DNA from: an uncultured Clostridia bacterium
GTDB lineage: Bacteria; Bacillota; Clostridia; TANB77; CAG-508
NCBI GenBank assembly: GCA_944387495.1
Contig: CALXFD010000004.1
Span: 6,798 to 70,797, forward strand
Length of the DNA stretch: 64,000 nucleotides
Direction: 5' to 3'
Of the stretch, positions 6,109 to 29,333 are shown one piece after another. Both the position numbers and the translations under genes were made by a program. The notes under the pieces are model-generated. The model saw only the letters and a list, made by a program, of their open reading frames with translations, was not told the origin of the DNA and searched no databases. Numbering within the stretch: position 1 is the stretch's first letter; each line of letters opens with the position of its first letter.

Positions 6109-6123
6109 AAGAGGAGGAAAGTT

Positions 6124-6585
6124 ATGAAATTAACTAATTCGCAAGAAGAATATTTAAAAACAATATATTTGTTAGAAAAAAATAATAATAAAGTACGTGT
6201 TACAGATATTGCACAAAAGTTAAAAATAACTAAACCAAGTGTAAATAGAGCAATAAAAACATTAAGGGACATGGGACTTATTGAATATGAAGTATATGGA
6301 GATATTGCTTTTACTTATGAAGGCAAAGAAATTGCAAAAGATATTATTAAAAAATATGATATTATAAAAATGTTTTTAACAGATATCTTAGAAATTGAAG
6401 AAAGACAAGCTGAGGAAGAAGCCAAGTCAATGAAATATGCAATATCGGAAAACACTGCTAAAAAATTAGAGGATTATATTAGCAAAATAATGAATTTAGG
6501 AGATTTAGATTGTGACTATGATGAAAATAATCCAAAATGTAGAGACTGTGTAAAGATTACTGCAAAAAATAGATTAAAAAAATAG
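6124..6585 (+). CDS. DtxR/MntR-family metal-dependent transcriptional repressor
   Basis: N-terminal winged helix SQEEYLKTIYLLEKNNNKVRVTDIAQKLKITKPSVNRAIKTL typical of the family; Cys-rich tail CDYDENNPKCRDC. Confidence 0.8.
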   Translation: MKLTNSQEEYLKTIYLLEKNNNKVRVTDIAQKLKITKPSVNRAIKTLRDMGLIEYEVYGDIAFTYEGKEIAKDIIKKYDIIKMFLTDILEIEERQAEEEAKSMKYAISENTAKKLEDYISKIMNLGDLDCDYDENNPKCRDCVKITAKNRLKK

Positions 6586-9731: not shown

Positions 9732-9752
9732 AAACTATTCAACTTCTTTTTT
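9720..9752. terminator. bidirectional hairpin between convergent genes
   Basis: gaagttgaata / tattcaacttc perfect stem followed by tttttt. Confidence 0.55.
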
Positions 9753-10115
9753 CCATAAACCATGTTTATTACAATAAGCATATAAACAAGAACCTTTAAT
9801 ATATGGGAAACGACACTCAGCATTTTGCTCAGGATATAATTTAACCATATATTCTTTATTATCTGCAACCAAGCAAATCCATTCAATAAAATGTTCTTTT
9901 TCCATCACATGATTTACTTTTACAAAAATTTCATCTTCAACTTTTTCATAAGTTGGAACATGTTTTTCAACAGCAGCATCTACTGAATTAGGAACTAATT
10001 TTTCCATAGGTTCTCCACAGCAAATAATGCCACATCCATTACAATTACAATCTTCAATAACTTTTACTAATGCACCACATGATTTACATTTTTTTACTAT
10101 TAATTCATTTTTCAT
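9735..10115 (-). CDS. dfx: desulfoferrodoxin (2Fe superoxide reductase)
   Basis: N-terminal desulforedoxin Cys motif CKSCG..ICCGEPM, EKHVP, and centre II motif CNKHGLW. Confidence 0.85.
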   Translation of the reverse strand: MKNELIVKKCKSCGALVKVIEDCNCNGCGIICCGEPMEKLVPNSVDAAVEKHVPTYEKVEDEIFVKVNHVMEKEHFIEWICLVADNKEYMVKLYPEQNAECRFPYIKGSCLYAYCNKHGLWKKEVE

Positions 10116-10667
10116 GAAAATACCTCCTTAAATAAATTAAAAAATTATAATTTTTTTATATAGTAATATATAAGATTAATAAAAATATTAAGTATATACG
10201 ATTTTTGGAAATCAATATATATATAATTTACTATATAAATAGAGAATATTATAAAATATTATTCGAAAATAGTATATCATATAAAAGTAAAAAGATAAAT
10301 AGAAGTTTTTATAAAATATAAAAAGACGGACTACAAAAAGTTTAAGAATTTTTTGACAGAATAACAAATATGTGCTATTATATAGCTACATAAGTAATGT
10401 ACGCTCGGTCTGATTGTGTCATCTCATTTACCCCCTTTCCATCTTTATGGAAAAGACCGCCTTTTGACATTAAAAGGTTGACAATATTTTACAATATTTT
10501 TTTATTCCTTTAATATTCCTCCTATTTTAAATTTTATAATAACTAAAATAGGTTTTATTAGCTCGTATCAAAATATTTATACCTTTGCATTACCTCCATC
10601 AACTGAAATGTTATTTAGCAAACCTGTTTATTGACTTCAAAAATAATATTATACTTTCTATATTTTG

Positions 10668-10705
10668 ACAAACAAAAAACAAGGTATATTTCAACCTTGT
10701 TTTCT
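10668..10705 (-). terminator. rho-independent terminator downstream of the tRNA
   Basis: aacaaggt / accttgtt stem; on the minus strand it is followed by tttttgtttg. Confidence 0.6.
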
Positions 10706-10766
10706 TATTGTTATGCATAAAATGAACTCAGCTTAAAAATAAGTAAAAGTTCTTTTATGTCCGTTT

Positions 10767-10842
<76 letters not shown>

Positions 10843-10960
10843 ATATATCTGTTCAACAAAATTATTATACCACCATGGTAGTCAAAAGTCAATAGTTAAT
10901 CAAGAAAAAATATGGAAAAAATTTACTGCACACAAAATATGATAATTTAAAACAAAATAC

Positions 10961-10990
10961 TTGTAGAAAACAGCAAATTTGCTATATAAT
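10961..10990 (+). promoter_or_regulatory. sigma-A-type promoter for the methyltransferase transcript
   Basis: TTGTAG (10961-10966), 18-nt spacer, TATAAT (10985-10990); predicted transcription start falls at the start of leader motif copy B. Confidence 0.45.
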
Positions 10991-10996
10991 ATAAAA

Positions 10997-11030
10997 AGGT
11001 TTATAGGTAAAACCATTAAAAACCTAAATA
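10997..11030 (+). promoter_or_regulatory. leader motif copy B (same hairpin/A-tail element as 6584-6620)
   Basis: AGGTTTATAGGTAAAACC identical to copy A; same pairing options; homology continues to the start codon. Confidence 0.4.
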
Positions 11031-11074
11031 GGACACGAAGGAGATAAGATATATAAAAATATATCAAAAATAAA

Positions 11075-13177
11075 ATGCAAGTAAAAAATAGAGGACAAGT
11101 AATCACACCAAAAAATATAATCAAAGATATATTAGAATTATCAGACTATAAAGGCGAAAAAATACTAAAAAAACACGTAATGGAAAATAGTTGTGCAAAC
11201 GGAGCCTTTTTAGTAGAAATAGTAAAAAGATATATAAATGCATACAAGAGAAAAAACAAAACATTAAAAGGAATAGAAGAAGAATTAAGCACATATATAC
11301 ATGGAATAGAAATAGATAAAGAACTACACAAAGAATGTATAAAAGAACTAAATAATTTAGCGAAAGAGCAAAAAATAGGAGAAGTAAACTGGGATATCAT
11401 AAATGGAAATTCATTAAAAATAGATAAATATAACAATGAAATGGATTATGTCATAGGAAACCCACCATATGTAAGAACACATAATTTAGAAGACCAATAT
11501 CAAAATGTAAAAAACTCAATTTTTTGTACAAATGGAATGATAGACTTATACATAATATTTTTTGAAGTAGGGCTAAAAATGCTAAAAAACTCAGGAACAT
11601 TATGTTATATAACACCAAATTCATTTTATACAAGTGTAGCAGGAACAGAACTAAGAAACTATATAAAAACAGAGCAATGCCTAGAAACAATAATGGATCT
11701 AGGGCATTATCAACCATTTAAAGAAACCACATATACAACAATCACCAAAATACAAAAAGGAATAAAATTTAAGCACTGCAAATACTACAAATATAGCCAA
11801 GAAAGCGAAAGACCAATATATAAAAACATAATAAATTACAGTAAATTATTCATAGACGGCAGAATATATTTAGAAACAAATAAAAAGGGAAGTGCAGAAG
11901 TTTTGCAATATAACTCAAAAAGTCTAAAAACAAGAGTAAAAAATGGTTTTGCAACATTATCAGACAAAATCTTTATACAAAATGATTTTCCATTTGTAGA
12001 AAATACAATAGATGTAATAAAATCGTCAACAGGAAAATGGGCAAAATGTATATATCCATATGACGAAAATGGAAAAATAATACCATTTGAAAACCTCAAC
12101 CAAGATGTACAAGAATATCTAATGAATAATAAAGAAAAGCTAGAAAAAAGAAGTATAGACGAGAATACACCATGGTATGCATTTGGAAGAACACAAGCAA
12201 TAAATGACGTACAAAAACAAAAAATAAGTATAAACACAACAATAAAAGATATAGAATCAATAAAACTAAACCTAATAGAACCAGGACAAGGAGTATATAG
12301 TGGATTATACATATTAACAGACAAGCCATATGAATATATAGAAAAAATAATAAAAACAAAAAGATTTATAAAATATATAGAAGGGCTAAATAAATGTAAA
12401 AATGCTGGATACTATACATTTTCATCAAAAGATTTAGAAAAATATATAAATTATCACACGGAGGTGATGAATATGGACAATAACAAGTTTCTGAACATCA
12501 TAAGAGAATCATTTGAAAAATACTTAGAAACAAGTTCAAGAAGCAATGAAAAATTAAAAATACTACATGGAGAAATAGCAAAAGACTTAGCAGATAGATT
12601 AGGAGATGGATACAAAGTAAATTCATTAAACACAAAGGGGGGAAAAGAAAAAAATATTCAAGGAGAATATATGGTAAAAAAAGTAGACATTACAATATCA
12701 AAAAAAGAAAAAGACATAGCAGGAATAGCTCTAAAATTCATAATGAGCAACTACTGGCAAAATTCCAACAACTATTTTGAAAACATGCTAGGAGAAACAG
12801 CAAACATAAGAAGAGCAGGAAAACCATATTATCAAATCTTAGTACTACCAAGCAAACTACCATATTTTAACAAAAGTGGGGAAATAAAAAAATATGAAGA
12901 AATAAATCAGGACAGATTAGAAAAATATATAAAATTATCTAAGGAAGATATAAAACAAAATTTATACTGTCCAAATAAAATGCTAATTTACATAGTAGAT
13001 ATACCAATCCCAGGAGAAGATTGCAAGCAAAGAAAAGATTATATAGAGTTTTACCAAAATTTAGATGAATTTCATATTACGAAAAATAATGAAGAGTATG
13101 AATTTGGGGATATGGTGGTTTATAATGATTATGAGAGATTTATAAGTGAGATATGTGATGAAGTGGAAAATAATTAG
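11075..13177 (+). CDS. fused gamma-class N6-adenine DNA methyltransferase plus C-terminal putative restriction endonuclease domain
   Basis: Motif I ENSCANGAFL, motif IV GNPPYV, TaqI/Eco57I-like layout; residues ~465-700 form a separate domain preceded in frame by GGAGGTG-ATG (12460-12469). Confidence 0.7.
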   Translation: MQVKNRGQVITPKNIIKDILELSDYKGEKILKKHVMENSCANGAFLVEIVKRYINAYKRKNKTLKGIEEELSTYIHGIEIDKELHKECIKELNNLAKEQKIGEVNWDIINGNSLKIDKYNNEMDYVIGNPPYVRTHNLEDQYQNVKNSIFCTNGMIDLYIIFFEVGLKMLKNSGTLCYITPNSFYTSVAGTELRNYIKTEQCLETIMDLGHYQPFKETTYTTITKIQKGIKFKHCKYYKYSQESERPIYKNIINYSKLFIDGRIYLETNKKGSAEVLQYNSKSLKTRVKNGFATLSDKIFIQNDFPFVENTIDVIKSSTGKWAKCIYPYDENGKIIPFENLNQDVQEYLMNNKEKLEKRSIDENTPWYAFGRTQAINDVQKQKISINTTIKDIESIKLNLIEPGQGVYSGLYILTDKPYEYIEKIIKTKRFIKYIEGLNKCKNAGYYTFSSKDLEKYINYHTEVMNMDNNKFLNIIRESFEKYLETSSRSNEKLKILHGEIAKDLADRLGDGYKVNSLNTKGGKEKNIQGEYMVKKVDITISKKEKDIAGIALKFIMSNYWQNSNNYFENMLGETANIRRAGKPYYQILVLPSKLPYFNKSGEIKKYEEINQDRLEKYIKLSKEDIKQNLYCPNKMLIYIVDIPIPGEDCKQRKDYIEFYQNLDEFHITKNNEEYEFGDMVVYNDYERFISEICDEVENN

Positions 13178-13415
13178 AAATGGAAGAATTCACAAACTGA
13201 CAATTGAAATAAAATTTAATAAAAAAATGGAAATAAAAAGCTTCTATCGATACATGGTAGGAGCTTTTTTTATAAAATCTTAACATTAAAAAATATTGAG
13301 TATGTATAATAAGCAAATAAATTAAAGATAGTTAAAAATGACACCAGGGCATAAAAACTTATTTTGCTTTTAAATTCATTAATATATATCTATTTTAACA
13401 TATTTATTTTTTTAT

Positions 13416-14191: not shown

Positions 14192-14935
14192 ATGAAAAAA
14201 AGTAAAAGAAAAATAATATCAATTTTATTAGTTGTAATAAGTATAATTTCAATAGGAATTAACGCATACGCACATTCAGGCAGAACAGATGCAAATGGAG
14301 GGCATAGAGACAATAAAAACAAAAGTGGATTAGGAAGTTACCATTATCATTGCGGAGGTAATCCAGCCCACTTGCATACTAATGGAGTATGTCCATACTC
14401 ATCAAGTAAAAGTAGTACATCAAGTTCTTCGTCATCAAGTAAAAGTACAAGCACTAGCACAAATACAAGTACAAAAGCAAAAACAGAGCCAAAGAGTACA
14501 GTGCCTGCAACAATCGATGTAACAGGAATACAAATAAATGAAAATGTAGAAAGCTTAAAAATAGGAGAAACAAAAATATTGACAGCAGTGATAACACCTG
14601 ATAATGCAACAAATAAAGAAATTACATGGAAATCAAGTGATGATAGCATAGCAACAATTAGTGCAACAGGAGAGATTAATCCAAAGAAGGCGGGAATTGT
14701 GTATATAACAGCAAGTAGTTCTAATGGAAAAACTGATAGTATAAAGATAGAGATTAAAGAAGAGGAAAAAATGGAAAATGTTAATATAACAAAAACATCA
14801 GCAGTTGAGGGAAATACGGCTAGTAATAATATTTCGACAAATGATGGAGAAGATTCGAATCCGTTAGGAGGGCTTGCTACATTAGGAATATTAGGTGGTT
14901 TAGGATATTGGGGGTATGGAAAGTTTAGAAAGTAA
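14192..14935 (+). CDS. secreted YHYH-motif protein with Big_2 Ig-like domain and C-terminal hydrophobic anchor
   Basis: Signal peptide; GGHRDNKNKSGLGSYHYHCGG; S/T linker; Big_2-like ITWKSSDDSIATISATGEINPKKAGIVYITA; C-terminal TM plus KFRK. Confidence 0.7.
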   Translation: MKKSKRKIISILLVVISIISIGINAYAHSGRTDANGGHRDNKNKSGLGSYHYHCGGNPAHLHTNGVCPYSSSKSSTSSSSSSSKSTSTSTNTSTKAKTEPKSTVPATIDVTGIQINENVESLKIGETKILTAVITPDNATNKEITWKSSDDSIATISATGEINPKKAGIVYITASSSNGKTDSIKIEIKEEEKMENVNITKTSAVEGNTASNNISTNDGEDSNPLGGLATLGILGGLGYWGYGKFRK

Positions 14936-14991
14936 ATGTAACGAAAGGGGATAAGCATAAAATAGATTATGAAATAGAATAAAAATTAGTA

Positions 14992-15008
14992 CTCATAACC
15001 CGAAGGTC
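14992..15008 (+). repeat. att core, left copy
   Basis: CTCATAACCCGAAGGTC, identical to 35706-35722. Confidence 0.8.
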
Positions 15009-15036
15009 GTAAGTTCGAGTCTTACCCCCGCAACCA
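14992..15036 (+). pseudogene. orphan 3' half of an initiator tRNA-Met (anticodon loop to CCA), no 5' half
   Basis: 42/45 identity to the reverse complement of 10767-10811; two of the three differences are compensatory in the T stem (gcaag/cttgc to gtaag/cttac); followed by hairpin atcacta..tagtgat plus T-run. Confidence 0.8.
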
Positions 15037-15130
15037 AAGTATGTATCACTAGAACTGTAAAGGTTTTAGTGATTTTTTATTGCTTAAAAATTGGTTGCAA
15101 TAATGCTTGAAAATGGCATTATTATGTCAA

Positions 15131-15153
15131 ATTGGGTAAAAATTGGGTAAAAT
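15131..15153 (+). repeat. arm-type repeat (left), candidate Int/Xis binding site
   Basis: ATTGGGTAAAAATTGGGTAAAAT identical to 35565-35587; both followed by CTCAAA..ATGCCC. Confidence 0.6.
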
Positions 15154-15292
15154 AACCACCTCAAATGCCCGAAATTCTAATAAAAATTCAATAAAAAATT
15201 TGCTAAAAATTTATAATTTTTATAAAAATCTACAAGTAAAAAACTTTTGGGAAAGAGATATAAAATCTCAAAGTTTTTTACTTTTTATATCG

Positions 15293-15331: not shown

Positions 15332-16525
15332 TTAAGACCTTGTTGGTAATAGTAAGTTTTCTAGTGCATATCCAGCTTTTCTATTATGAGAAAGTAGTGG
15401 ATGTACATAAAAGTCAAGTGTTGTACTTATTTGCGCATGACCAAGTCTTGCTGAAACAACAGCTATATCAACATTTTGTGCAACTAGTAAACTTGCATTT
15501 GTATGTCTTAATCCGTGAAAATTAATTACAGGTAGTCCTATTGTACCTACATATTTAACAAACCATTTACTTATAGAAGAAGGATGCATAGGTTTGCCAT
15601 CAGCTTGTACAAATAACCTATCAGAATTCGTCCATAATTCGCCATATAGCGATTTTTGATCTTCATACCATAACTTATATTCCTCAAGCAAAGAAATGAT
15701 AAATTCGGGTATTGCAATCTCTCTAATGGAGCTTTCTGTTTTAGGAACTTTTGTAAATACTCCCATATCTGATAGATACTGACTAGAACGGTTAATACTT
15801 ATAATTCCATTTCTAAAATCAACATCTTGCCATTCTAATCCCATTAATTCACCTAAACGAACACCAGTAAAGATAGTAAGAATGATAGCAACTTTGTATT
15901 TAGTATCTTCTATTGTAAGTTTTTCTAAGTTTTCTAACAATATTTTAGTTTGCTCATCATCATAAGATCTTCTTTTAGGTTTTTTAGCTCTAGGTGGTTG
16001 AACACGTTCAGCAGGATTGCTTACAATTAATTGCCAGTAAACTGCTCTATGAAGCATTGCTCTTAATAGTCTGTGATGTTCTAAAATAGTTTTACCAGAT
16101 AAAGGCTTTTTAGTTTTTGAACCATTGTTACCTTTTTTTCTAACTAATTGAGTATCTCTTTCAAGTAAGTCATAGAATTTCATAATATCAGTTGGTCTTA
16201 TTTTGTTAATATAGAAATGTCCGAAATATGGTAAAATTCTTGTTTCTAACATTCTACAATATCGTTTGTATGTTGTAGGAGCTAGTTCTTTTGAACCATA
16301 ATCTCTTTTCCATAATTCAACAAATTCAGAAAATTTAAGAGATTTACCATCTATGACTAAACAGTTTTGTACTTCAGTAACAAATTTTGCTAGTTCAACT
16401 TCTGCTTCTTTTTTAGTTCCATGAATAGTTTTTCTGTGTATCATGGGCCTTCCACTTAGGTCAAATCCTTCTGATACTGTTAACCTGTAACTATTTTTTC
16501 CTCTTTTTTCTATACTCCCAGCCAT
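15332..16525 (-). CDS. int: phage-type tyrosine integrase
   Basis: Catalytic signature FTGVRLGEL .. HGLRHTNASLL .. LGHAQISTTLDFYVH (R-HxxR-Y); N-terminal SAM-like core-binding domain; adjacent to att. Confidence 0.9.
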   Translation of the reverse strand: MAGSIEKRGKNSYRLTVSEGFDLSGRPMIHRKTIHGTKKEAEVELAKFVTEVQNCLVIDGKSLKFSEFVELWKRDYGSKELAPTTYKRYCRMLETRILPYFGHFYINKIRPTDIMKFYDLLERDTQLVRKKGNNGSKTKKPLSGKTILEHHRLLRAMLHRAVYWQLIVSNPAERVQPPRAKKPKRRSYDDEQTKILLENLEKLTIEDTKYKVAIILTIFTGVRLGELMGLEWQDVDFRNGIISINRSSQYLSDMGVFTKVPKTESSIREIAIPEFIISLLEEYKLWYEDQKSLYGELWTNSDRLFVQADGKPMHPSSISKWFVKYVGTIGLPVINFHGLRHTNASLLVAQNVDIAVVSARLGHAQISTTLDFYVHPLLSHNRKAGYALENLLLPTRS

Positions 16526-16806
16526 TACTTATTTCACCTCCTTTCAAGTATAACTATGGAAGGGAGAGTATTTATGTGTATTATATAGTATTTTTTGATA
16601 AATTACCAGCTATTTTTGCTTATTTTTAGCTACTTTCAAAGATTACAATAAAATTCATAAAAGAATATATGAAAAACATAAAGGAACTAAAAGAAATGTA
16701 ATAAAAAATTAATAAGATATGGTAAAATCATAATTTTTATGATAGAATACAAGACAAATGCACTAAAGAACAAAATAAAAAATAATGCTTAGCGTAAGGG
16801 ATAGAA

Positions 16807-18093
16807 ATGAATAAGAAAAGAAAGAATAGAATTAGAAAATTTGGAATAAATAAAACAAATAAAATAATGAGACAAAGGCATCGAGAAAAGTACCACCATA
16901 TAAAGGGGGTTAAAACTGGAAAAAATGCGAAGAAAAGATATATTCCTAATAAAGTTGTTAAATTATTAGATTTAAAAAAGTTTTATCATAAAATAGAAAG
17001 AAATAAAAATACTGTTATTATAGAAATTCCACTTAGATTTTCCTTAATTACAAATCCAGAAGAATCGTTAAAAACTTTAAAGAAAATATTTACAGCTATA
17101 CATGATGAAAAAGTACAAGAATTATTTTTGGATTATTCAAAATGTGAAGAATTGGGCTTATGTGCTTCTTCAGTAACAGATATAATTATACTTAATGGTT
17201 ATAAATATAGAAGAATATTAAATAAGCCTTTAAATACAAGAGGAAATGTTCCAAAATCCAATGAAGCCAAAGAAATTTTTATAATAAGTGGATTAGTAAA
17301 GCATTTAGGAATTTCAAAAATAGAAAATATAAATACTGTTAGATTAGATATAATACAGAATCAGGAACAATCAAAAATGACAGATGAAATTATTCAATAC
17401 TATGATAAATGTTTAAATACCCAAAATTATCAACTGACGGTACAAGGAAAAAGTAAATTTGCACATATGATAGGTGAAGTTTTAGATAATGTAAGTCAAC
17501 ATGCAGGTGAATTAGCCACTTGGTATGCATCGGGTCACTTTAACATAGATAAAGATAGAAAAGATGGCAAATGTAGATTAGTATTATTTGATTTTGGAGA
17601 TAGTATTTATGAAGGATTAAATAGAGAAGATACTACAGAATATACAAAAAAACTATTAAAAAATAAAACAAAAGAGCATTATAATATATTTAACAAAAAA
17701 TGGAACGAAGAACCTTTATGGATGCTATATGTTTTACAATATAATGTTAGTAGAAAAAGAGTAGATGTGAATGATGATAGAGGAAAAGGAACTATAAAAT
17801 TAATAAATAATTTTATGCATATTGGAAAAAATATGGAGGGCAATAATCCGATAATGGCAATAATAAGTGGAAATGGTTATATTTTATTTGATTCAACATA
17901 TACATTAAAAGAAGAAATAGTGAATGGCAAAAAAATACCGATAATAGCATTTAATGAGGAAAATGACTTATCTAAAAAACCAGATAGTAAATATGTAAAA
18001 AGGATAGATGAAAATTTTCCTGGAACTATGATAAGTATGGAATTTTATTTAGATAAAGAATATATAGAAAAGCAGATGGAGGTAAGAATATGA
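16807..18093 (+). CDS. GHKL (SpoIIAB/RsbW-like) ATPase-fold protein with uncharacterised K-rich N-terminal half
   Basis: N box EVLDNVSQHAG, G1-like LFDFGDSIY, G2-like DDRGKGTIKLI in the order expected for anti-sigma-type serine kinases/ATPases. Confidence 0.55.
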   Translation: MNKKRKNRIRKFGINKTNKIMRQRHREKYHHIKGVKTGKNAKKRYIPNKVVKLLDLKKFYHKIERNKNTVIIEIPLRFSLITNPEESLKTLKKIFTAIHDEKVQELFLDYSKCEELGLCASSVTDIIILNGYKYRRILNKPLNTRGNVPKSNEAKEIFIISGLVKHLGISKIENINTVRLDIIQNQEQSKMTDEIIQYYDKCLNTQNYQLTVQGKSKFAHMIGEVLDNVSQHAGELATWYASGHFNIDKDRKDGKCRLVLFDFGDSIYEGLNREDTTEYTKKLLKNKTKEHYNIFNKKWNEEPLWMLYVLQYNVSRKRVDVNDDRGKGTIKLINNFMHIGKNMEGNNPIMAIISGNGYILFDSTYTLKEEIVNGKKIPIIAFNEENDLSKKPDSKYVKRIDENFPGTMISMEFYLDKEYIEKQMEVRI

Positions 18094-18404
18094 AAAACAT
18101 AGATTTAAGTAAGTTAACACAAAATATAAAGGTTATTTCGGGTAGAGATAGAGGAATGGAGCTTAGAGAAAAACTTAAAATAGATGAAAAAGATATAGAT
18201 GAAGAGATTTATGAATTTGAAATAGCACAAGATGTGTATTCTTTTAATTCTTCGTGCTTTTTGGGCTTGTTTAGTGATAGCATAAAAAAATTAGGAGAGA
18301 AAAAATTTAGAGAAAAATACCAATTTAAATGTAGTGAATTAATAAGAATGAATATTGAAGATGGCATAAGAGATGCGGTAAATAAAGCTAATCCATTGGG
18401 GTGA
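18090..18404 (+). CDS. STAS-like small protein (DUF4325-type)
   Basis: ATGA overlap with upstream gene; 104 aa; ISGRDRGMELREKL .. SFNSSCFLGLFSDSI resembles the STAS_2/DUF4325 pattern that pairs with GHKL ATPases. Confidence 0.5.
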   Translation: MKNIDLSKLTQNIKVISGRDRGMELREKLKIDEKDIDEEIYEFEIAQDVYSFNSSCFLGLFSDSIKKLGEKKFREKYQFKCSELIRMNIEDGIRDAVNKANPLG

Positions 18405-18410
18405 TAAAAA

Positions 18411-19022
18411 ATGATAAAGAAAATTTTTATAATTGGTATAATTATAATATTTATGTGTATTGGACAAGTGAATGCTACAAATGAAATTGGTGATAAAATA
18501 GTCATAGATACAACAAGTTGGACAGATGTTTTAGTAATGGCAATAAGTTTTATAAATTTGATATTTATAGTTGCTTTTTATATTAATGATCAAAAAAACA
18601 GAGAAAGTGATCAAAAAATAAATTATAAATTTTTTTGGTACAAAGATTATGTACTAAAAGATGCTATAAATATTATAGAAGAACATATTGATAATTGTAA
18701 AAATATATTAGAAGAATGCAAACGATATAAATTGTCTGGTCCTAATGTAGAAGAATATAGTAGATATTTACAAGAGACAACAATATGGAATTTTAATAAA
18801 TCAAATAATAATACAAAAACAAGATTATCCGAATTGTTGCAAACAATGGGAGGAGATTTATCAGAAGATATTATTGAAGAATTTAGGAATATTCAAGATT
18901 TATTTACTGAAAGAATTCAAAATGTAAATAGTGATATTGATAGTTTATATGGAGAAATAGTAGAAAAGAAACCAAATTTAATGAATACATTATATAAATA
19001 TGGATTAGATATAATAAAATAA
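18411..19022 (+). CDS. two-TM membrane protein with helical cytoplasmic C-domain, unknown function
   Basis: 6 nt after previous stop; hydrophobic IFIIGIIIIFMCIG and VLVMAISFINLIFIVAFYI; remainder charged and helical. Confidence 0.5.
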   Translation: MIKKIFIIGIIIIFMCIGQVNATNEIGDKIVIDTTSWTDVLVMAISFINLIFIVAFYINDQKNRESDQKINYKFFWYKDYVLKDAINIIEEHIDNCKNILEECKRYKLSGPNVEEYSRYLQETTIWNFNKSNNNTKTRLSELLQTMGGDLSEDIIEEFRNIQDLFTERIQNVNSDIDSLYGEIVEKKPNLMNTLYKYGLDIIK

Positions 19023-19051
19023 AGTCTATACAAAGTAAGTATAGACTTTTT
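19023..19051. terminator. bidirectional terminator
   Basis: agtctatac / gtatagact perfect stem plus ttttt. Confidence 0.65.
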
Positions 19052-19062
19052 AATTATATATT

Positions 19063-20145
19063 TTAATTTTCTTTAATCCATTCGAGCAATTCTTCTTCTG
19101 AAATTTTATTATTGTTAAATTCCTTTATTTTTTCTTTAGCAAGTTTCTTCCAATTTTCAAAAGCTATTCGAATTTCTTCATCATTAGACCTTTTAACTTG
19201 CATTAATCTTCTTTGATAATTGTTTCTATAAAATTTAATTCCTTCAATAGTATTTCTCTTTTTAGAATAAGAATTATTAGCACCAATCATTTTACAAGTT
19301 ACTTCATTTTCACAATATACAATATCACAATATTTTTCAGTATTTCTAAGTGGAATAAAATATTTACCACAGTTCTTACAAACTTTAATTCTTATACTAG
19401 TATTAGAAGCTATTTCAAATAAAGAAATATACAGTATATTGGATAAATATGATGTATGAAAAATAGGACTATCACCTATATTTATTATTCCATTTTCTAA
19501 ATGTTCTCTAACTATTTTAGGTGTTATAGATTGTGAAGCTATATGGTATATATCATGTGCAAATTGTTGGTAATAATATACTTCTATGTTTGTAGAATAT
19601 TTAAATAAGTTATTAAAAATAGAATAAGAAAGATACTTTTCTAAAGGTGTATAATTCTTATCTATTGAATTATTATTTAAATTATACATATAGTCTACGC
19701 ATTGTTTTATCAAATATTGTAATTTCTTTAACTTAGGTTTAACTTTATTAAAAATTGGTTGATAAGTTTCTATAAATTCATCTTCTGTTTTAAAGAATTT
19801 TAATGAAGGAATAGATGCATAAAATTCACATAAAATAGAGAAACCATAAAAACAGAAGAAAGTACGATAAAATGTTTTAAAAGACGCAAAATTCGCATTA
19901 AGAAATTTTATTAAAAAAGTTCCATAACTTTCTTCAAAAGGCTCTAATAAAGTGGCTGAGGAAAAATAAATCTCTTTATCGTTCTTAGAATCATTAAAAA
20001 GTATATTTAAGAATCTATTACTTTTATCATGATAAAAAGTAGTTTTATACAAAGAAATTGAAGTTGTATAAAACTCTTTTCTTTTTTCCCTATTAAACCA
20101 AATGTTAAAGTAATCTTTTATTGGAATATTATCTTCTCTTAACAT
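19063..20145 (-). CDS. zinc-ribbon protein of mobile-element backbone (DUF6076-like by recollection)
   Basis: CKNCGKYFIPLRNTEKYCD..CENEVTC cluster; divergent from xis. Confidence 0.45.
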   Translation of the reverse strand: MLREDNIPIKDYFNIWFNREKRKEFYTTSISLYKTTFYHDKSNRFLNILFNDSKNDKEIYFSSATLLEPFEESYGTFLIKFLNANFASFKTFYRTFFCFYGFSILCEFYASIPSLKFFKTEDEFIETYQPIFNKVKPKLKKLQYLIKQCVDYMYNLNNNSIDKNYTPLEKYLSYSIFNNLFKYSTNIEVYYYQQFAHDIYHIASQSITPKIVREHLENGIINIGDSPIFHTSYLSNILYISLFEIASNTSIRIKVCKNCGKYFIPLRNTEKYCDIVYCENEVTCKMIGANNSYSKKRNTIEGIKFYRNNYQRRLMQVKRSNDEEIRIAFENWKKLAKEKIKEFNNNKISEEELLEWIKEN

Positions 20146-23031: not shown

Positions 23032-25380
23032 ATGGGAATAGAAGAACAATTATCTGAGGAAGATATAAGAAACATGTATATAACACCGGCTTTGACCAAA
23101 AAATGGAGTCTGGAAAAGCAAATTAGAAGTGAAGTTTATTTTACTGCTGGAAGAGTAATTGTAAGAGGAAATATGTCTGCAAGAAAAAAAGGAGAAAAAG
23201 CAGATTATATATTATATTATAATAGTTCTAAACCTATTGCTGTGGTAGAAGCTAAAAAGAATACGCTATCAGTAGGAGCAGGAATGCAACAAGCAATGAA
23301 TTATGCAAAAATTTTAGATATTCCTTTTGCGTATTCAACTAATGGAAAAGCTTTTTTAGAACATGATTTTTTAACTGGAAAAGAGCGAGAAATTTCAATG
23401 GATGAATTTCCTTCTCCAGAAGAATTGTGGAATAGATATAAGATAGGGAAAAATCTTACATTGGATGAAGAAAAAATTATTAATGAACCATATTATTATG
23501 CCCCAGGAACAAATAAACCAAGATACTATCAAAGGATAGCAATTAATAGAACATGTGAAGCGATAGCAAGAAATCAAAAAAGAATACTATTAGTTATGGC
23601 TACAGGTACTGGAAAAACATTTACAGCTTTTCAAATTATACATAGGTTAAGAAAAGCGGGATTAAAAAAGAAAATACTTTATTTAGCAGATAGAAATATG
23701 CTTATAGATCAAACTATGAGTCAGGATTTTCAACCATTTAGTAATATAATGACTAAAGTAGAAAATAGAAAAATGGACAGCTCTTATGAAATATATATGG
23801 CATTATATCAACAACTTACTGATGGACAAGGGACAGATATATTTAAAAATTTCCAGAGAGATTTTTTCGATTTAATTATTGTAGATGAATGCCACAGAGG
23901 GAGTGCAGCTGACGACTCAAATTGGAGAAGAATATTAGAATATTATAGTAGTGCTACTCAAATTGGTTTAACTGCGACTCCAAAAGAAGATAAGGAAGTA
24001 TCTAACATAAGCTATTTTGGAGAACCAATTTATACATATTCACTAAAACAAGGAATAGATGATGGGTTTTTAGCTCCTTATAAAGTTATAAGAGTTAATT
24101 TAGATAAAGATTTAGTTGGATATAGACCAGAGGCAGGTAAGACTGATGTAAATGGTAATATCATAGATACAGATGAGACATATTATCAAGCTGATTTTGA
24201 CAAGAAAATAATTATAGATGAAAGAACACAAGTAGTAGCAAAAAGAGTTACTGAGTTCTTGAAGAATACAAATAGATATAATAAAACAATAGTTTTTTGT
24301 ATCGATATAGAACATGCTGAAAGAATGAGACAAGCATTAGTTAATGAAAATTCAGATATGATGTTAGAAAATCCAAATTATATTATGCGAATTACAGGTG
24401 ATAATCAAGAGGGAAAAGATCAATTAGAAAATTTTATAGATGTTGAAGAAAAATATCCAACAATTGTAACAACTAGCAAATTGTTAACAACGGGAGCTGA
24501 TTGTAAAACCTGTAAATTAATAGTGTTGGATTCTAATATTAATTCAATGACAGAATTTAAACAAATTATTGGTAGAGGAACTAGAATTAGGGAGGATTTT
24601 GGTAAAACATATTTTACAATATTGGATTTTAGAAATGCAAGTAGATTATTTAGTGATCCTGACTTTGATGGTGAACCAATTTCAATAAAAGTAGTAAAAC
24701 CTGGTGAACCAATGCCAACAGAAGATGAAGACAAAATTGAAAATAGTGGCGATGATACTAAACCTACTGATAAAAATAATGTAGATATAAATCATCCCGG
24801 AAAAACAGTTAATACGAATACAAAAATTAGAGTTAATGGTGTAGATGTAAATATCTATAATGAGATATGTTCATATTATGATAAAGATGGAAAATTAGTA
24901 ACCGAATCATTGAAAGATTTTAGTAAAAGAAGTATTTTAAACGAATATGCTTCATTAAATGATTTTATTAATAAATGGAATTCAACAGATAGGAAGCAAG
25001 CAATACTAGATGAATTAAAGGAACAAGGAGTATTACTTGATGAACTACGAAAAGATGTAGGAAATGAAGATATCGGAGATTTTGATTTGATTTTACATAT
25101 TGCTTATGATAAAAAACCTCTTACCAGATATGAAAGAGTAAATAAAGTATTAAAAAAAGGATATTTATATAAATATTCTGAGATGGCTCAAAATATTTTA
25201 AAAGATTTATTAGAAAAATATAGTGATAATAATGAATTAGAACTTACTGATACCAAAATATTACAATTAAAACCATTTGAGGGGTATGGATCTCCAATGG
25301 AAATTGTAGATGTATTTGGAGGAAAAGAGAAATATATAGAAGCTGTGGAAGAATTAGAAGATGAATTATATGCAAGTTAG
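23032..25380 (+). CDS. hsdR: type I restriction enzyme R subunit
   Basis: N-terminal PD-(D/E)xK KADYILYY..VVEAKK; helicase motifs VMATGTGKT, IIVDECHRG, LTATP, QIIGRGTR. Confidence 0.9.
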   Translation: MGIEEQLSEEDIRNMYITPALTKKWSLEKQIRSEVYFTAGRVIVRGNMSARKKGEKADYILYYNSSKPIAVVEAKKNTLSVGAGMQQAMNYAKILDIPFAYSTNGKAFLEHDFLTGKEREISMDEFPSPEELWNRYKIGKNLTLDEEKIINEPYYYAPGTNKPRYYQRIAINRTCEAIARNQKRILLVMATGTGKTFTAFQIIHRLRKAGLKKKILYLADRNMLIDQTMSQDFQPFSNIMTKVENRKMDSSYEIYMALYQQLTDGQGTDIFKNFQRDFFDLIIVDECHRGSAADDSNWRRILEYYSSATQIGLTATPKEDKEVSNISYFGEPIYTYSLKQGIDDGFLAPYKVIRVNLDKDLVGYRPEAGKTDVNGNIIDTDETYYQADFDKKIIIDERTQVVAKRVTEFLKNTNRYNKTIVFCIDIEHAERMRQALVNENSDMMLENPNYIMRITGDNQEGKDQLENFIDVEEKYPTIVTTSKLLTTGADCKTCKLIVLDSNINSMTEFKQIIGRGTRIREDFGKTYFTILDFRNASRLFSDPDFDGEPISIKVVKPGEPMPTEDEDKIENSGDDTKPTDKNNVDINHPGKTVNTNTKIRVNGVDVNIYNEICSYYDKDGKLVTESLKDFSKRSILNEYASLNDFINKWNSTDRKQAILDELKEQGVLLDELRKDVGNEDIGDFDLILHIAYDKKPLTRYERVNKVLKKGYLYKYSEMAQNILKDLLEKYSDNNELELTDTKILQLKPFEGYGSPMEIVDVFGGKEKYIEAVEELEDELYAS

Positions 25381-25391
25381 GAGAAAGAATA

Positions 25392-26879
25392 ATGGGAATA
25401 GGAAATATATTAAAAAGACTACAAGATATCATGAGAAATGATGAAGGAGTAAATGGAGATGCACAACGATTAGAACAAATTGTATGGATATTGTTTTTAA
25501 AAGTGTATGATGCTAAAGAAACACAATGGGAATTTGATGACGAAGGATATGTCTCAGTAATTCCAGAAGAATTAAGATGGAGAAATTGGGCGGTAGATAA
25601 GAAAGATGGGAAAGCATTGACAGGTGAAGAATTACTTAATTTTATTAATAATGAATTGTTTCCAAGATTAAAGAACTTAGATATAGATGCAGACACACCG
25701 ATAAAAAAGGCAATTGTAAAATATACATTTACAGACATTAATAATTATATGAAAAATGGTATATTACTAAGACAAGTAATCAATATTATTGATGAAATAA
25801 AATTTACTAACCCTAATGAAAGACATGAATTTAACGAAATCTATGAAACTATGTTAAAAGAGTTACAAAGTGCAGGAAATGCAGGAGAATTTTATACTCC
25901 TAGACCAGTTACTAACTTTATGGTAAATATGATAAAGCCTAAATTAGGAGAAAAGATTGCAGACTTTGCTTGTGGTACAGGAGGATTTTTAACTTCAGCT
26001 TTAGATTATTTAAAAGAGCAAGTAAAAACAGCAGAGGATTTGGATTTATATAATGATTCAATATATGGTGTAGAAATGAAATCATTACCATATTTATTGT
26101 GTATTACTAATTTATTGCTACATGACATAGATAATCCTAAAGTAGAGCATAGAAATAGTTTTGATAGAAACATAAAAGATTATTCTGAAGATGAGAAATA
26201 TGATGTAGTATTAATGAATCCACCTTATGGGGGAAATTTGTTGAAAGAATATTTAGTTAATTTTCCATCAAATTTAAGAGGATCAGAAACAGCAGATTTA
26301 TTTATAGCATTAATCATGTATAGACTTAAGTCTTTTGGAAGAGCGGCAGTAATACTTCCAGATGGATTCTTGTTTGGAACAGATAATACTAAAATAAATA
26401 TAAAAACAAAACTACTAAAAGAATTTAATTTACATACTATAATTAGATTACCAAGTTCTGTTTTTGCACCATATACATCTATAACAACTAACATATTATT
26501 TTTTGATAAATCAATGCCAACAAGTGAAATATGGTTTTATAGATTGGATATGCCAGAGGGATACAAGAATTTTTCAAAAACAAAACCAATAAAAAATGAG
26601 CATTTTAAAGAAGTAAGCGAGTGGTGGGATAATAGAAAAGAAATTATAGACGAAAAACAAAACGAGGAATCTACTACAACTTATAAATCTAAATGTTATT
26701 CAGTAAAAGAAATAATTGAAAATGGATATAATTTGGATTTGTGTGGATATCCTCATGAAGAAGAAATAATATTAGAGCCTAAAGAATTAATTGCAAAGTA
26801 TCAAAAAGAAAGAGCTAAATTGAATGCGGAAATTGATAAAATTTTAGAAGAAGTAAGTAAATTATTGGAGGAAGACTAA
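25392..26879 (+). CDS. hsdM: type I R-M N6-adenine methyltransferase subunit
   Basis: FYTPRPV, motif I DFACGTGGFL, motif IV LMNPPYGG. Confidence 0.9.
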   Translation: MGIGNILKRLQDIMRNDEGVNGDAQRLEQIVWILFLKVYDAKETQWEFDDEGYVSVIPEELRWRNWAVDKKDGKALTGEELLNFINNELFPRLKNLDIDADTPIKKAIVKYTFTDINNYMKNGILLRQVINIIDEIKFTNPNERHEFNEIYETMLKELQSAGNAGEFYTPRPVTNFMVNMIKPKLGEKIADFACGTGGFLTSALDYLKEQVKTAEDLDLYNDSIYGVEMKSLPYLLCITNLLLHDIDNPKVEHRNSFDRNIKDYSEDEKYDVVLMNPPYGGNLLKEYLVNFPSNLRGSETADLFIALIMYRLKSFGRAAVILPDGFLFGTDNTKINIKTKLLKEFNLHTIIRLPSSVFAPYTSITTNILFFDKSMPTSEIWFYRLDMPEGYKNFSKTKPIKNEHFKEVSEWWDNRKEIIDEKQNEESTTTYKSKCYSVKEIIENGYNLDLCGYPHEEEIILEPKELIAKYQKERAKLNAEIDKILEEVSKLLEED

Positions 26880-28480: not shown

Positions 28481-28492
28481 ACAGCTGTTTTT

Positions 28493-29296: not shown

Positions 29297-29333
29297 ACTG
29301 AAACCCTCCTTTCCAATATGGCATTATATAAAA

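Follow-up and report, generated by a model that had tools for sequence, protein, structure and literature searches.

A widespread three-gene operon of mobile elements encoding a STAS-GHKL kinase, a DUF4325 STAS-like protein and a membrane protein: a candidate kinase-gated toxin-antitoxin or abortive-infection module

Organisation of the operon

In a 64,000-nucleotide stretch of DNA from an uncultured Clostridia bacterium (the window), three tightly coupled open reading frames on the plus strand encode proteins of 428, 104 and 203 amino acids (ORF1, ORF2 and ORF3; Table 1). An earlier interpretation made from the letters alone (the sequence-only reading) had described a tightly coupled operon that lies close to an integrase, is closed by a terminator and belongs to an island containing restriction-modification (R-M) genes. 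A check of the sequence and its ORFs confirms this description and recovers all the features noted there at their positions. The ORF1/ORF2 junction is an ATGA in which the ATG of ORF2 (18090-18092) sits on the TGA of ORF1 (18091-18093), giving a 4-nt overlap, while ORF2 and ORF3 are separated by a 6-nt gap (18405-18410). The operon is 2.2 kb long. A tyrosine integrase gene adjoins it on the upstream side, and the island within the window also includes Type I R-M genes and a gene for an Abi_C protein.

The leader between the integrase gene and ORF1 is presumed to contain the promoter region. In this AT-rich DNA, however, promoter-like matches upstream of ORF1 number 22 versus 24.1 expected in shuffled sequence, and therefore no promoter can be assigned to the operon. 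Downstream of ORF3, a strong hairpin with T-runs is the sole terminator-like site on either strand between 16400 and 19300 (0.6 expected). It is common to the triad and to a convergent DUF6076 gene (19063-20145).

Table 1. Features of the operon and its flanks, with positions counted from the first nucleotide of the window.
Feature	Position	Strand	Description
Tyrosine integrase	15332-16525	-	adjoins operon on upstream side
Leader between integrase and ORF1	16526-16806	+	intergenic; presumed promoter region
ORF1 (K)	16807-18093	+	428 aa
ORF1 basic arm, aa 1-60	16807-16986	+	K/R-rich; long helix then disordered stretch predicted
ORF1 internal STAS-like domain, aa ~64-185	16996-17361	+	beta-alpha repeats
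ORF1 GHKL (Bergerat) kinase domain, aa ~196-421	17392-18069	+	
ORF2 (S)	18090-18404	+	104 aa
ORF3 (M)	18411-19022	+	203 aa
Bidirectional intrinsic terminator	19021-19049	both	11-pair stem, 7-nt loop, T-run on each strand

ORF1 is a predicted STAS-GHKL kinase

Single-sequence scans of the three proteins against Pfam, NCBIfam and PADLOC return nothing. None of them is covered by a model in PADLOC-DB v2 (2023), where ORF1 and ORF3 have no match and ORF2 only noise (E = 0.025). Their affiliations come from family alignments and AlphaFold2 (AF2) models.

The first 60 residues of ORF1 contain 23 Lys and Arg but only two Asp and Glu, a net charge of +21, and the median net charge of this arm across the family is +15 over about 58 residues. 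In the AF2 model of ORF1 (pLDDT 85.7, pTM 0.83) the arm forms a helix at residues 3-29, followed by a stretch at 30-42 with pLDDT below 50. The STAS-like domain comes next, with P75, F78, C113, A120, S121, G146 and G162 as its conserved residues by column counts. The sequence-only reading had called the N-terminal half of ORF1 lysine-rich and without recognisable motif; the first description stands, but the second gives way to a basic arm followed by the protein's own STAS domain.

The C-terminal half carries the stretches EVLDNVSQHAG (aa 224-234), FDFGDS (261-266) and DDRGKGTIKLI (323-333), previously read as Bergerat-fold motifs in SpoIIAB/RsbW order. That assignment is corroborated by structure, by conservation and by profile comparison. 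The motifs comprise an N-box (E224/N228/H232), a G1 box (D262-F-G264), a G2 box (R325-G326-x-G328-T329) and a G3 box (G406-T407). E224, N228, G264, G326, G328 and G406 are invariant in 127/127 family sequences and H232 is found in 123, so that the N-box reads E-x3-N-x3-H. Searched with Foldseek, the GHKL part of the model matches SpoIIAB (1til_E, TMt 0.62) and UsfX (8ih8_C), whereas the STAS part matches SpoIIAA (1h4x_A and 1thn_B, probability 0.87-0.94) and TM1442 (1vc1). The model also matches a viral protein of 233 aa (J7KH07, E = 1.6e-5), and ORF1 matches phrog_3364 in PHROGs (E = 2.9e-20); it is not matched by tblastn in the INPHARED phages. The G1-box Asp contacts adenine in canonical GHKL proteins. 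Of the 127 family sequences, 88 have Asn at this position, 18 have Ser and 16 have Asp, and Ser or Thr replaces the second Gly; the ORF1 of the window keeps the Asp.

Two recently characterised systems provide the closest relatives of this kinase. In VapKSC, the ssDNA-activated kinase VapK phosphorylates the STAS antitoxin VapS, which releases the PIN toxin VapC (Chambers et al., EMBO J 2026; PMC13373217). CapK and CapS are transcriptional controllers of immune operons, the C-terminal wHTH of CapS repressing the downstream operon (PMC13373217). In hhalign comparisons, the ORF1 family aligns with VapK-like kinases at 97.4% (E = 1.3e-11) over 276 columns, collinearly across the STAS and GHKL domains; the E-values are 2e-4 over 284 columns against VapK alone and 7e-4 against the GHKL region of CapK. 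The GHKL motifs of ORF1 fall on those of VapK and CapK in these alignments. N228 of ORF1 corresponds to the N-box residue N218 of CapK, mutation of which abolishes phosphorylation (PMC13373217). Homology thereby identifies ORF1 as a predicted STAS-GHKL serine kinase of the SpoIIAB/RsbW/VapK lineage, with CapK/VapK architecture.

This relationship is not visible to all methods. The Pfam search with HATPase_c_2 (PF13581) proposed in the sequence-only reading gives no match for ORF1: neither that model nor HATPase_c (PF02518) detects ORF1 or its 26 homologues at E <= 1, beyond noise, and even VapK and CapK score below threshold against HATPase_c. Family HMMs built from 27 and 127 sequences retrieve only chance matches among PDB sequences (bromodomains and ribosomal proteins), because of the basic arm.

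CapK W68 and VapK F54 are aromatic residues that stack on ssDNA (PMC13373217). In an alignment anchored by C113 and A120, VapK F54 falls on E115 of ORF1, a column that is not aromatic in the family (25 Glu, 12 Asp, 11 Lys, 11 Val, 11 Asn and 9 Tyr), and the trigger may therefore differ from that of CapK and VapK. F78 had been considered as the counterpart of CapK W68, given the identical 150-residue spacing to the N-box Asn (F78-N228 and W68-N218), and was dropped in view of this alignment.

ORF2 is a divergent DUF4325 protein

The AF2 model of ORF2 (pLDDT 91.1) has a beta-alpha-beta-alpha-beta-alpha order. The sequence-only reading had assigned the protein to the STAS-like DUF4325 type, and the assignment holds, although the search that it proposed succeeds only through homologues. 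PF14213 (DUF4325) does not match the window's own ORF2 at E <= 1 but matches eight of 22 homologues at that cutoff; against a gathering threshold of 23 bits, the homologues at loci L036, L030 and L008 score 27.4, 19.5 and 14.6 bits, the first of which passes. VapS is itself a DUF4325 protein (62.7 bits, E = 2.7e-17). By hhalign, the ORF2 family aligns in the correct register with a small VapS/CapS alignment (E = 4.3e-4), whereas comparison with the single VapS sequence (hhalign, HMMER) and direct HMM comparison with VapS/CapS failed or were misaligned. ORF2 also matches phrog_37359 (E = 4.4e-5). A Foldseek search of the PDB with the ORF2 model finds nothing significant in an April-2026 library from which the CapS/VapS structures (9Z7x) are apparently absent; the best STAS match is RsbS (TMq 0.45), below ClpP-like alpha/beta matches. 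The ORF2 profile returns noise (Csm5) from PDB sequences.

Ser55 (encoded at 18252-18254) is invariant in 80/80 sequences. It begins the second helix of the AF2 model (residues 54-76) and aligns to the SSF column containing S54 of CapS, the phospho-acceptor of that protein. No HTH or other DNA-binding domain is found in the 104 residues of ORF2, either by Pfam or in the AF2 model. By homology, ORF2 is assigned as a divergent STAS-like member of DUF4325, the family in which Pfam also places VapS, and is presumed to be both kinase substrate and antitoxin.

ORF3 represents a new family of membrane proteins

Hydropathy and alignment place two hydrophobic segments in ORF3, a signal-like or hydrophobic segment at aa 1-24 and a conserved transmembrane (TM) helix at aa ~35-60, with a short external loop between them. 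The TM helix is followed by a basic stretch and a charged, helical cytoplasmic domain of ~140 aa in which W76 is invariant and D163 near-invariant. The earlier description as a small two-TM protein with a helical cytoplasmic domain is accordingly right as to the membrane and the helical tail, but the conserved core has one TM helix. The family HMM detects ORF3 in all distant loci. What is conserved is the TM helix and the cytoplasmic domain; the external segment ranges from absent, as in the Lachnospiraceae versions, to about 130 aa. This pattern fits an effector or an anchor and led to rejection of ORF3 as an external sensor.

Searches of Pfam, NCBIfam, PADLOC, PHROGs and PDB sequences find no match for ORF3, which resembles no known pore-former or effector there, and neither a PIN nor any other Pfam domain is found in ORF3 and 20 homologues. 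It is presumed to be the effector.

Distribution and genomic context

The triad, with overlapping or nearly abutting junctions, recurs at about 35 independent loci, among which ORF1 identity falls as low as 28%, and in each the kinase gene is immediately followed by the small STAS/DUF4325 gene, as in CapK/VapK-type systems. Because it recurs in so many independent loci, the three-gene arrangement is far beyond chance. The loci span at least five phyla (Bacillota, Pseudomonadota, Bacteroidota, Verrucomicrobiota and Oligoflexia) and include non-sporulating organisms. The kinase family comprises at least 310 clusters at 50% identity, and the kinase alone is represented by 991 representative clusters. 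All three proteins are annotated as "hypothetical protein" in all three plasmid records inspected. Decay is seen at two loci: L001 has a frameshifted kinase gene with intact ORF2 and ORF3, and at L037 all three genes have decayed and ORF3 is undetectable, a pattern that counts in favour of the function proposed below.

Several triads lie close to R-M or candidate defence genes. Four (L004-L007) are directly downstream of hsdMSR, one (L002) is beside genes for Upx-like and STAND NTPase proteins, and another (L011) is beside a BnzB-like gene; Type I R-M subunits, DpnII, PDC-S13 and PDC-S05 are also among the neighbours. Many other neighbours, however, are housekeeping or plain mobile-element genes, and hence the association with defence genes, as read from neighbour lists, is moderate and not universal. 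Of the two properties that the sequence-only reading proposed to check, conservation of the triad is evident, whereas enrichment near R-M and Abi genes is only moderate. Tyrosine recombinase genes lie beside the triad in the window, in Pantoea and in Spirosoma; on the Pantoea plasmid the triad adjoins partition and replication genes, and relaxases and recombinases are found near it at other loci. The module is cargo of integrative elements, plasmids and prophage-like regions.

No gene for a sigma factor is found beside the triad within about 5 kb in the window, in the annotated loci or among the families common to at least two of 146 neighbours, in agreement with the sequence-only reading. Likewise, no response regulator is consistently adjacent in the annotated neighbourhoods. 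Phage-borne pairs of the kinase and STAS genes (K-S pairs) occur without a membrane third gene. The small ORFs that follow these pairs were considered as membrane toxins and ruled out, as they are not hydrophobic.

Proposed function and alternative explanations

The operon is, on balance, probably a kinase-gated module of the CapK/VapK type that acts as a toxin-antitoxin or abortive-infection system and has a predicted membrane effector. In the resting cell, ORF2 would bind the cytoplasmic helical domain of membrane-anchored ORF3 and hold it inactive. An infection or DNA-damage signal would switch on the ORF1 kinase; judging from CapK and VapK, the signal could be a single-stranded nucleic acid, which the +21 arm may help to capture. 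ORF1 would then phosphorylate ORF2 at Ser55, as suggested by the invariance of this residue, by its place at the start of helix 2 and by its alignment to CapS Ser54. Phosphorylated ORF2 would dissociate, allowing ORF3 to oligomerise or otherwise perturb the membrane, and growth would stop or the cell would die before the release of phage progeny. The sequence-only reading had proposed a candidate uncharacterised defence module based on partner switching. Its three domain calls stand, and the defence function is one that we infer.

The same genes could serve other ends. ORF3 might recruit ORF2 as an anchor in the membrane or as a sensor of the envelope state, with the kinase and STAS proteins passing a non-lethal signal on to a target whose gene lies elsewhere, such as one involved in envelope stress or in the biology of the element. 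The lack of resemblance between ORF3 and any known toxin is compatible with such signalling, as is the classically regulatory role of STAS/GHKL partner switching in SpoIIAB and RsbW, and the phage-borne K-S pairs indicate that the switch can drive outputs from other places in the genome. This explanation is nevertheless unlikely: the extracytoplasmic part of ORF3 is not conserved and is missing in the Lachnospiraceae versions, which argues against an external sensor, and strict co-inheritance of the three genes on mobile DNA in unrelated phyla argues against dependence on a host-specific target. Nor is a sigma factor or response regulator consistently adjacent in the annotated neighbourhoods. 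A classical anti-sigma pair of the RsbW/RsbV or SpoIIAB/SpoIIAA type, acting on a sporulation or stress sigma factor, is highly improbable. Although the N-box, the structural matches and the Clostridium-like host are all of the expected kind, a sigma factor gene is missing beside the triad in the window and in the annotated loci, Pfam HATPase_c_2 detects 0/27 members, and the kinase is unlike anti-sigma factors in carrying a basic arm and, as in CapK and VapK, a fused STAS domain. Moreover, the unit travels on mobile elements and plasmids through phyla that include non-sporulating organisms.

The remaining alternative retains the kinase-STAS-membrane toxin mechanism but assigns it to the addiction or stabilisation of mobile elements, through post-segregational killing or control tied to excision, and not to phage defence. 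The tyrosine recombinases, the partition and replication genes of the Pantoea plasmid, the relaxases and the many neighbours that are not defence genes would all suit this role, and the authors of the VapKSC study themselves describe the line between toxin-antitoxin or stress responses and immunity as fuzzy (PMC13373217). Kinase-gated release, however, needs a signal, whereas classical addiction uses antitoxin instability, of which ORF2 gives no sign. The triad also recurs beside R-M and candidate defence genes, and the sister system VapKSC protects against phage Bas42 (PMC13373217). An addiction role is thus quite improbable.

A kinase-gated module with a membrane effector remains the preferred reading. 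In its broadest form, put forward here tentatively, the triad could be a widespread unnamed defence or toxin-antitoxin system, spread over at least five phyla and at least 310 kinase clusters at 50% identity, in which phosphorylation of a DUF4325 antitoxin by a SpoIIAB-like kinase unleashes a new family of single-pass membrane effectors. Its sensor, with a basic arm, without the ssDNA-stacking aromatic and with mostly Asn at the adenine-binding Asp position, may use a trigger or nucleotide other than ssDNA or ATP. If so, the kinase/STAS switch of CapKS and VapKSC would be a general portable trigger that can be wired to different killing devices, here a membrane protein. A function would be provided for three large unnamed families, including a kinase without a Pfam, NCBIfam or PADLOC model, and a new family of membrane effectors would be defined. 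The triad is also a natural comparison for what STAS-GHKL sensors detect, since the ORF1 family does not conserve the residues linked to ssDNA sensing, and at 2.2 kb the system is small and directly testable.

Comparison with known systems

With the SpoIIAB-SpoIIAA and RsbW-RsbV modules, which provide the best structural matches in the PDB, the triad shares the GHKL Ser-kinase fold, the E-x3-N-x3-H N-box and a STAS substrate whose phosphorylation site lies at the start of helix 2 (predicted for Ser55 of ORF2). It differs from them in lacking a sigma factor and a PP2C phosphatase, in its location on mobile elements, in the fusion of the kinase to its own STAS domain, and in that the Pfam HATPase_c_2 and STAS models miss its proteins. 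Small membrane effectors are also found in abortive-infection systems, such as the TM effectors of CBASS and Pycsar, and RexB. Like these, the triad couples a sensor to a small membrane protein, the presumed killing device, and occurs in defence islands. ORF3, however, has no sequence or profile similarity to such effectors in PADLOC or Pfam, and activation in the triad would proceed by protein phosphorylation and release instead of a nucleotide second messenger.

The sequence-only reading did not recognise the architecture as a named defence system. It is correct that the triad itself has not been described, but its kind is now known, since VapKSC and CapKS are characterised sister systems. 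CapK, like ORF1, has an extra N-terminal domain followed by STAS and GHKL domains and an equivalent N-box Asn, and the predicted substrate Ser of ORF2 lies in an SSF motif like S54 of CapS. In addition, 88/443 capKS pairs are directly downstream of hsdMSR (PMC13373217), and the triad is sometimes found immediately downstream of an R-M operon. In contrast, the N-terminal domain of ORF1 is a basic arm and not an HTH, ORF2 is without the wHTH DNA-binding domain of CapS, and ORF3 is followed by a terminator and a convergent gene instead of an immune operon. The module is therefore self-contained, and a role as a CapKS-type regulator of a downstream operon was rejected.

The closest known system is VapKSC. 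The gene order is the same (kinase, small STAS protein, third gene), and the kinases are homologous over both an N-terminal STAS domain and a SpoIIAB-like GHKL domain. In both systems the product of the second gene is of the DUF4325 type, is about 100-116 aa long and has an invariant Ser opening helix 2, and both systems are mobile and often near other defence genes. Compared with VapK, ORF1 is about 125 aa longer, carries an arm of +15 to +21 where VapK has none, contains two insertions in the GHKL domain and belongs to a family whose column at the ssDNA-stacking Phe54 is not aromatic, while ORF2 has diverged so far from VapS that direct HMM comparison does not match the two. The third gene differs in kind: in VapKSC it encodes a PIN nuclease, in the triad a helical, membrane-anchored member of a new protein family.

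Operon organization

The triad consists of three genes encoding a kinase (ORF1, K), a STAS-like protein (ORF2, S) and a membrane protein (ORF3, M). All three lie where the sequence-only reading had placed them, with an ATGA junction at 18090–18093, at which the ATG of ORF2 overlies the TGA of ORF1, and a 6-nt gap between ORF2 and ORF3. The closing terminator it described was likewise recovered, as the sole terminator-like site within 16400–19300. Because this hairpin scores on both strands, it also serves the convergent gene downstream, whose DUF6076 product contains Cys-rich motifs. An opposite-strand gene at related locus L016 resembles it in size and position. Promoter-like matches upstream of the operon are no more frequent than in shuffled sequence, and no promoter was therefore assigned.

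Coordinates of the triad, its neighbours and features of related loci
Locus	Feature	Position	Strand	Remark
Window	tRNA-Met (CAT)	10767–10842	-	only tRNA gene in the window
Window	Tyrosine integrase	15332–16525	-	upstream of triad
Window	ORF1	16807–18093	+	428 aa
Window	ORF1 G117	17155–17157		helix 2 N-cap, internal STAS
Window	ORF1 D262	17590–17592		G1 Asp
Window	ORF2	18090–18404	+	104 aa
Window	ORF3	18411–19022	+	203 aa
Window	Terminator	19021–19049	both	11-pair hairpin, 7-nt loop, T-run
Window	DUF6076 gene	19063–20145	-	downstream; 360 aa; C-terminal DUF6076 domain, E = 3.5e-10
Window	hsdR	23032–25380		Type I R-M
Window	hsdM	25392–26879		Type I R-M
Window	hsdS	26879–28480		Type I R-M
Window	Tyrosine recombinase	28493–29296	-	adjoins Type I R-M
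Window	Second hsdS	29334–30440		inverted
Window	Abi_C-domain protein	30783–31556		after R-M locus
Window	DUF5655 protein	31718–32611		after R-M locus
Window	HTH + phrog_11900 protein	32732–33655		island cargo
Window	473-aa protein	33676–35097		phrog_27609 match, E = 1.5e-57
L001	Bro-N protein	15491–16183		near triad
L002	Bro-N protein	14335–15231		near triad
L016	Opposite-strand gene	12296–13342		
L020	Upstream gene	8975–9784		Clostridium clade
L021	Upstream gene	4423–5202		Clostridium clade
L022	Upstream gene	5545–6324		Clostridium clade
L023	Upstream gene	8967–9746		Clostridium clade
L037	Pseudogenised triad	9841–11478		Haloplasmataceae
L044	K-S pair	2411–3764		Marinitoga phage MPV1
L045	K-S pair	2501–3708		Burkholderia phage vB_E188
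L046	K-S pair	2111–3300		Streptococcus phage Javan140

Domain composition of the three products

A GHKL ATPase with a STAS-like partner had been proposed, with direct HATPase_c_2 and DUF4325 scans as the check and failed profile searches counting against it. Neither model matches the window's own proteins, and ORF1, ORF2 and ORF3 have no meaningful match in Pfam, NCBIfam or PADLOC. A Pfam scan of 27 ORF1 homologues and a search of PDB sequences with ORF1 family HMMs also returned nothing. Since the simple scans had failed, an unfavourable outcome for the proposal, structure, deeper homology and gene neighbourhoods were examined.

An exhaustive HMMER search recovered 991 representative clusters of ORF1 homologues at E <= 1e-3, 310 of them at E <= 1e-30, the best 150 being mostly 420–490 aa in length. 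The AlphaFold2 model of ORF1 (pLDDT 85.7, pTM 0.83; built on a 27-sequence alignment) matches two groups of PDB structures: STAS anti-sigma antagonists, namely SpoIIAA (1h4x_A and 1thn_B, probability 0.87–0.94) and TM1442 (1vc1), and GHKL anti-sigma kinases, namely SpoIIAB (1til_E, TMt 0.62) and UsfX (8ih8_C). The STAS matches place a STAS domain at approximately aa 64–185, in the N-terminal half in which the sequence-only reading had recognised no motif. The lysine-rich character noted there does hold for the arm: its first 60 residues contain 23 K+R against 2 D+E, and the family median net charge is +15. ORF1 is thus a basic arm followed by STAS and GHKL kinase domains. Phage family phrog_3364 (304 positions) matches aa 69–419 (E = 2.9e-20), and the best match in a viral structure library is an unnamed 233-aa protein, J7KH07 (E = 1.6e-5, probability 1.00, TMt 0.62).

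The Bergerat-fold motifs recognised earlier are invariant or nearly so among 127 diverse ORF1 homologues and, in the order noted then, make up the signature of SpoIIAB/RsbW-type proteins, with E-x3-N-x3-H preceding the G boxes. N-box E224 and N228, G1 glycine G264, G2 glycines G326 and G328, and G3 glycine G406 are present in all 127, while H232 of the N-box is found in 123, R325 and T329 of the G2 motif (R-G-x-G-T) in 119 and 123, and T407 of G3 in 115. In canonical GHKL proteins, the G1 Asp contacts adenine. In the alignment of ORF1 homologues, the corresponding position (D262, Asp in the window) is Asn in 88/127, Ser in 18/127 and Asp in 16/127; with all other ATP-site motifs invariant, these substitutions may indicate altered nucleotide recognition. 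In the internal STAS domain, motif alignment places G117 in the column of the SpoIIAA-type phospho-serine; this position is Gly in the window and Asp/Glu in 81 of the 127 homologues, and the domain may mimic a phosphorylated substrate.

The DUF4325 assignment of ORF2 was borne out through its homologues. The 22 ORF2 partners from related loci align well, and eight match PF14213 (‘STAS-like domain of unknown function’) at E <= 1, one of which (L036, 27.4 bits) exceeds the Pfam threshold of 23, with L030 close (E = 8e-4). ORF2 is accordingly classed, from these sequence matches, as a predicted divergent DUF4325 STAS-like protein. Its AlphaFold2 model (pLDDT 91.1) has a beta-alpha-beta-alpha-beta-alpha topology; a Foldseek search of the PDB found nothing significant, the best STAS match being RsbS (TMq 0.45). 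Ser55 is invariant in 80/80 ORF2 sequences, along with G22, R26, F57, F73 and F79, and lies at the N-terminus of helix 54–76 in the model. The phospho-serine of SpoIIAA-type STAS proteins occupies the same helix N-terminal site.

ORF3 represents a new membrane-protein family, with only noise in searches of Pfam (21 members scanned), NCBIfam, PADLOC, PHROGs and PDB sequences. The two-TM description fits the window protein, which has hydrophobic segments at aa 1–24 and 35–60 and a charged helical tail of ~140 aa, but not the family, whose conserved core comprises one TM helix (the second), a basic stretch, invariant W76, near-invariant D163 and a helical domain. Given the basic stretch after the conserved helix, the positive-inside rule places the tail in the cytoplasm. 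The segment before this helix differs between hosts: Lachnospiraceae versions lack it, and those of Salinivibrio, Oligoflexia and Verrucomicrobia carry a signal-like segment and a linker of up to ~130 aa.

Conservation and genomic neighbourhood

Homologous triads are conserved, as the earlier proposal had asked to be checked. The same gene order (~430–490, 104–113 and 170–300 aa), with junctions overlapping or a few nucleotides apart, repeats around ORF1 homologues of 28–99% identity, and ORF2 and ORF3 HMMs confirm both partners at distant loci. Triads occur in metagenome contigs, 27 genome loci and plasmids of Pantoea, Spirosoma and Salinivibrio, in all three of whose records every gene is a ‘hypothetical protein’. 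Hosts include Clostridia, Bacillales, Halanaerobiales, Lachnospiraceae, Haloplasmataceae, Gammaproteobacteria, Cytophagia, Oligoflexia and Verrucomicrobia.

The window's triad rides on an integrative element, as its first cargo past the integrase, together with genes for an excisionase-like HTH protein, an IstB/DnaC-like ATPase and a phage replisome organiser. The tRNA-Met gene lies ~4.5 kb from the integrase, which makes it no obvious attachment site for the element. The R-M locus (23032–30440) has a predicted phase-variable (shufflon-type) specificity layout. Elsewhere, the triad lies directly 3′ of hsdMSR (L004–L007), adjoins an Upx-like gene, a Bro-N gene and a STAND NTPase (L002) or a BnzB-like gene (L011), or sits beside prophage lysis genes (L001). 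Raw counts over 146 genes within 5 kb at 21 further loci gave Bro-N (6), relaxase (3), recombinases, Type I specificity and methylase subunits, and DpnII as recurrent families, and PDC-S13 (5) and PDC-S05 (4) as PADLOC candidates, with housekeeping genes also present. The proposed setting, first cargo of an island with R-M genes, holds in the window (integrase, Type I R-M, Abi_C). Taken together, these neighbourhoods mark the triad as mobile cargo, moderately associated with defence genes.

In one Clostridium clade, genes of ~260–270 aa lie directly upstream of the triad (L020–L023), and Bro-N proteins are annotated near it at L001 and L002. That the upstream genes are the source of the Bro-N/PDC-S13 matches is a guess, as the matches are not tied to individual genes.

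Relatives of the triad

In CapKS, CapK (HTH-STAS-GHKL) responds to ssDNA by phosphorylating Ser54 of CapS (STAS-wHTH), and this de-represses an adjacent immune operon (Chambers et al., EMBO J 2026, PMC13373217). In VapKSC, VapK (STAS-GHKL) acts on the STAS antitoxin VapS, phosphorylating Ser48 and so releasing the PIN toxin VapC, and vapKSC gives ~2 logs of protection against phage Bas42 (PMC13373217). A VapC clade ‘transcriptionally coupled to DUF4325’ had already been noted in a 2017 survey.

Sequences of CapK, CapS, VapK and VapS were taken from the supplementary files of PMC13373217. VapS matches DUF4325 strongly (E = 2.7e-17); VapK and CapK give only below-threshold matches to HATPase_c. 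For the ORF1-family profile, the alignment to VapK alone spans 284 collinear columns (VapK 11–296, ORF1 68–421; E = 2e-4) and that to the GHKL region of CapK reaches E = 7e-4; when VapK is joined by three VapK-like phage proteins detected with tblastn, 276 columns match (hhalign, 97.4% probability, E = 1.3e-11). ORF2 could not be matched directly to VapS on its own; once CapS and three phage S proteins are added to VapS, the ORF2 family aligns in the correct register (E = 4.3e-4), with Ser55 in an SSF column with CapS Ser54.

Three temperate phages (L044–L046) encode a short VapK-like kinase of ~300 aa, with an acidic tail and terminal Trp (...DEEFSW, ...EEEFEW, ...DEEW), then a DUF4325-like protein of ~100–120 aa, adjoined by integrase or lysis genes; neither a PIN nor a membrane third gene follows these pairs. 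In Francisella phage vB_FhiM_KIRK, Fhv_0046–0048, beside the integrase, are tabulated as a 293-aa hypothetical, a 112-aa DUF4325 and a 125-aa TM protein (PMC7924643) and, by these table descriptions, may be a prophage short-kinase version of the triad.

Proposed function

The triad is, on balance, probably a kinase-gated toxin-antitoxin or abortive-infection module. The analysis shows what K and S are related to and how they are built, that their catalytic and acceptor residues are conserved, how M is placed in the membrane, and that the three genes are inherited together on mobile DNA; the sequence of events is modelled on VapKSC. S would keep the cytoplasmic domain of M inactive until a nucleic-acid or damage signal activates K, for which the basic arm is a candidate polyanion-binding element; K would then phosphorylate S on Ser55, S~P would dissociate, and M, once freed, would perturb the membrane.

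At L001, the kinase is frameshifted and ORF2 and ORF3 are intact; at L037, the kinase reading is spread across three frames, ORF2 carries a frameshift and no ORF3 can be detected. Decay at these two loci is consistent with toxin-antitoxin logic. The same mechanism could serve addiction, a role we regard as improbable for a triad with R-M genes among its recurrent neighbours. Signalling without killing, in which M would serve as an anchor or a sensor, is unlikely, though a little less so. The SpoIIAB-like motifs would also suit a classical anti-sigma switch, which we consider very improbable: as observed earlier for the window, annotated neighbourhoods contain no sigma factor, nor do the families common to at least two neighbours.

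Comparison with known systems

The kinase-gated module favoured here can be compared directly with VapKSC and CapKS. A CapKS-type regulator was rejected, because ORF2, unlike the wHTH-bearing CapS, lacks a DNA-binding domain and a terminator closes the operon. Chambers et al. (PMC13373217) make no mention of a transmembrane third gene, and the literature search found no description of a kinase-DUF4325-membrane protein triad. The earlier view that this is not a named system thus stands for the exact triad, which is undescribed (literature, PADLOC) and unannotated yet widespread, and directly testable, but its sister VapKSC/CapKS is characterised. With that addition, and ORF1's own STAS domain, the sequence-only interpretation was essentially right. 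Relative to both systems, ORF1 has a long basic arm and two insertions, one separating G1 from G2 and the other G2 from G3, and in most family members the G1 Asp is replaced by Asn or Ser. At the column (E115) that aligns with the aromatic residue implicated in ssDNA stacking (VapK F54, CapK W68), the ORF1 family does not conserve an aromatic. Where the third gene of VapKSC encodes a PIN nuclease, that of the triad encodes a membrane protein of a new family.
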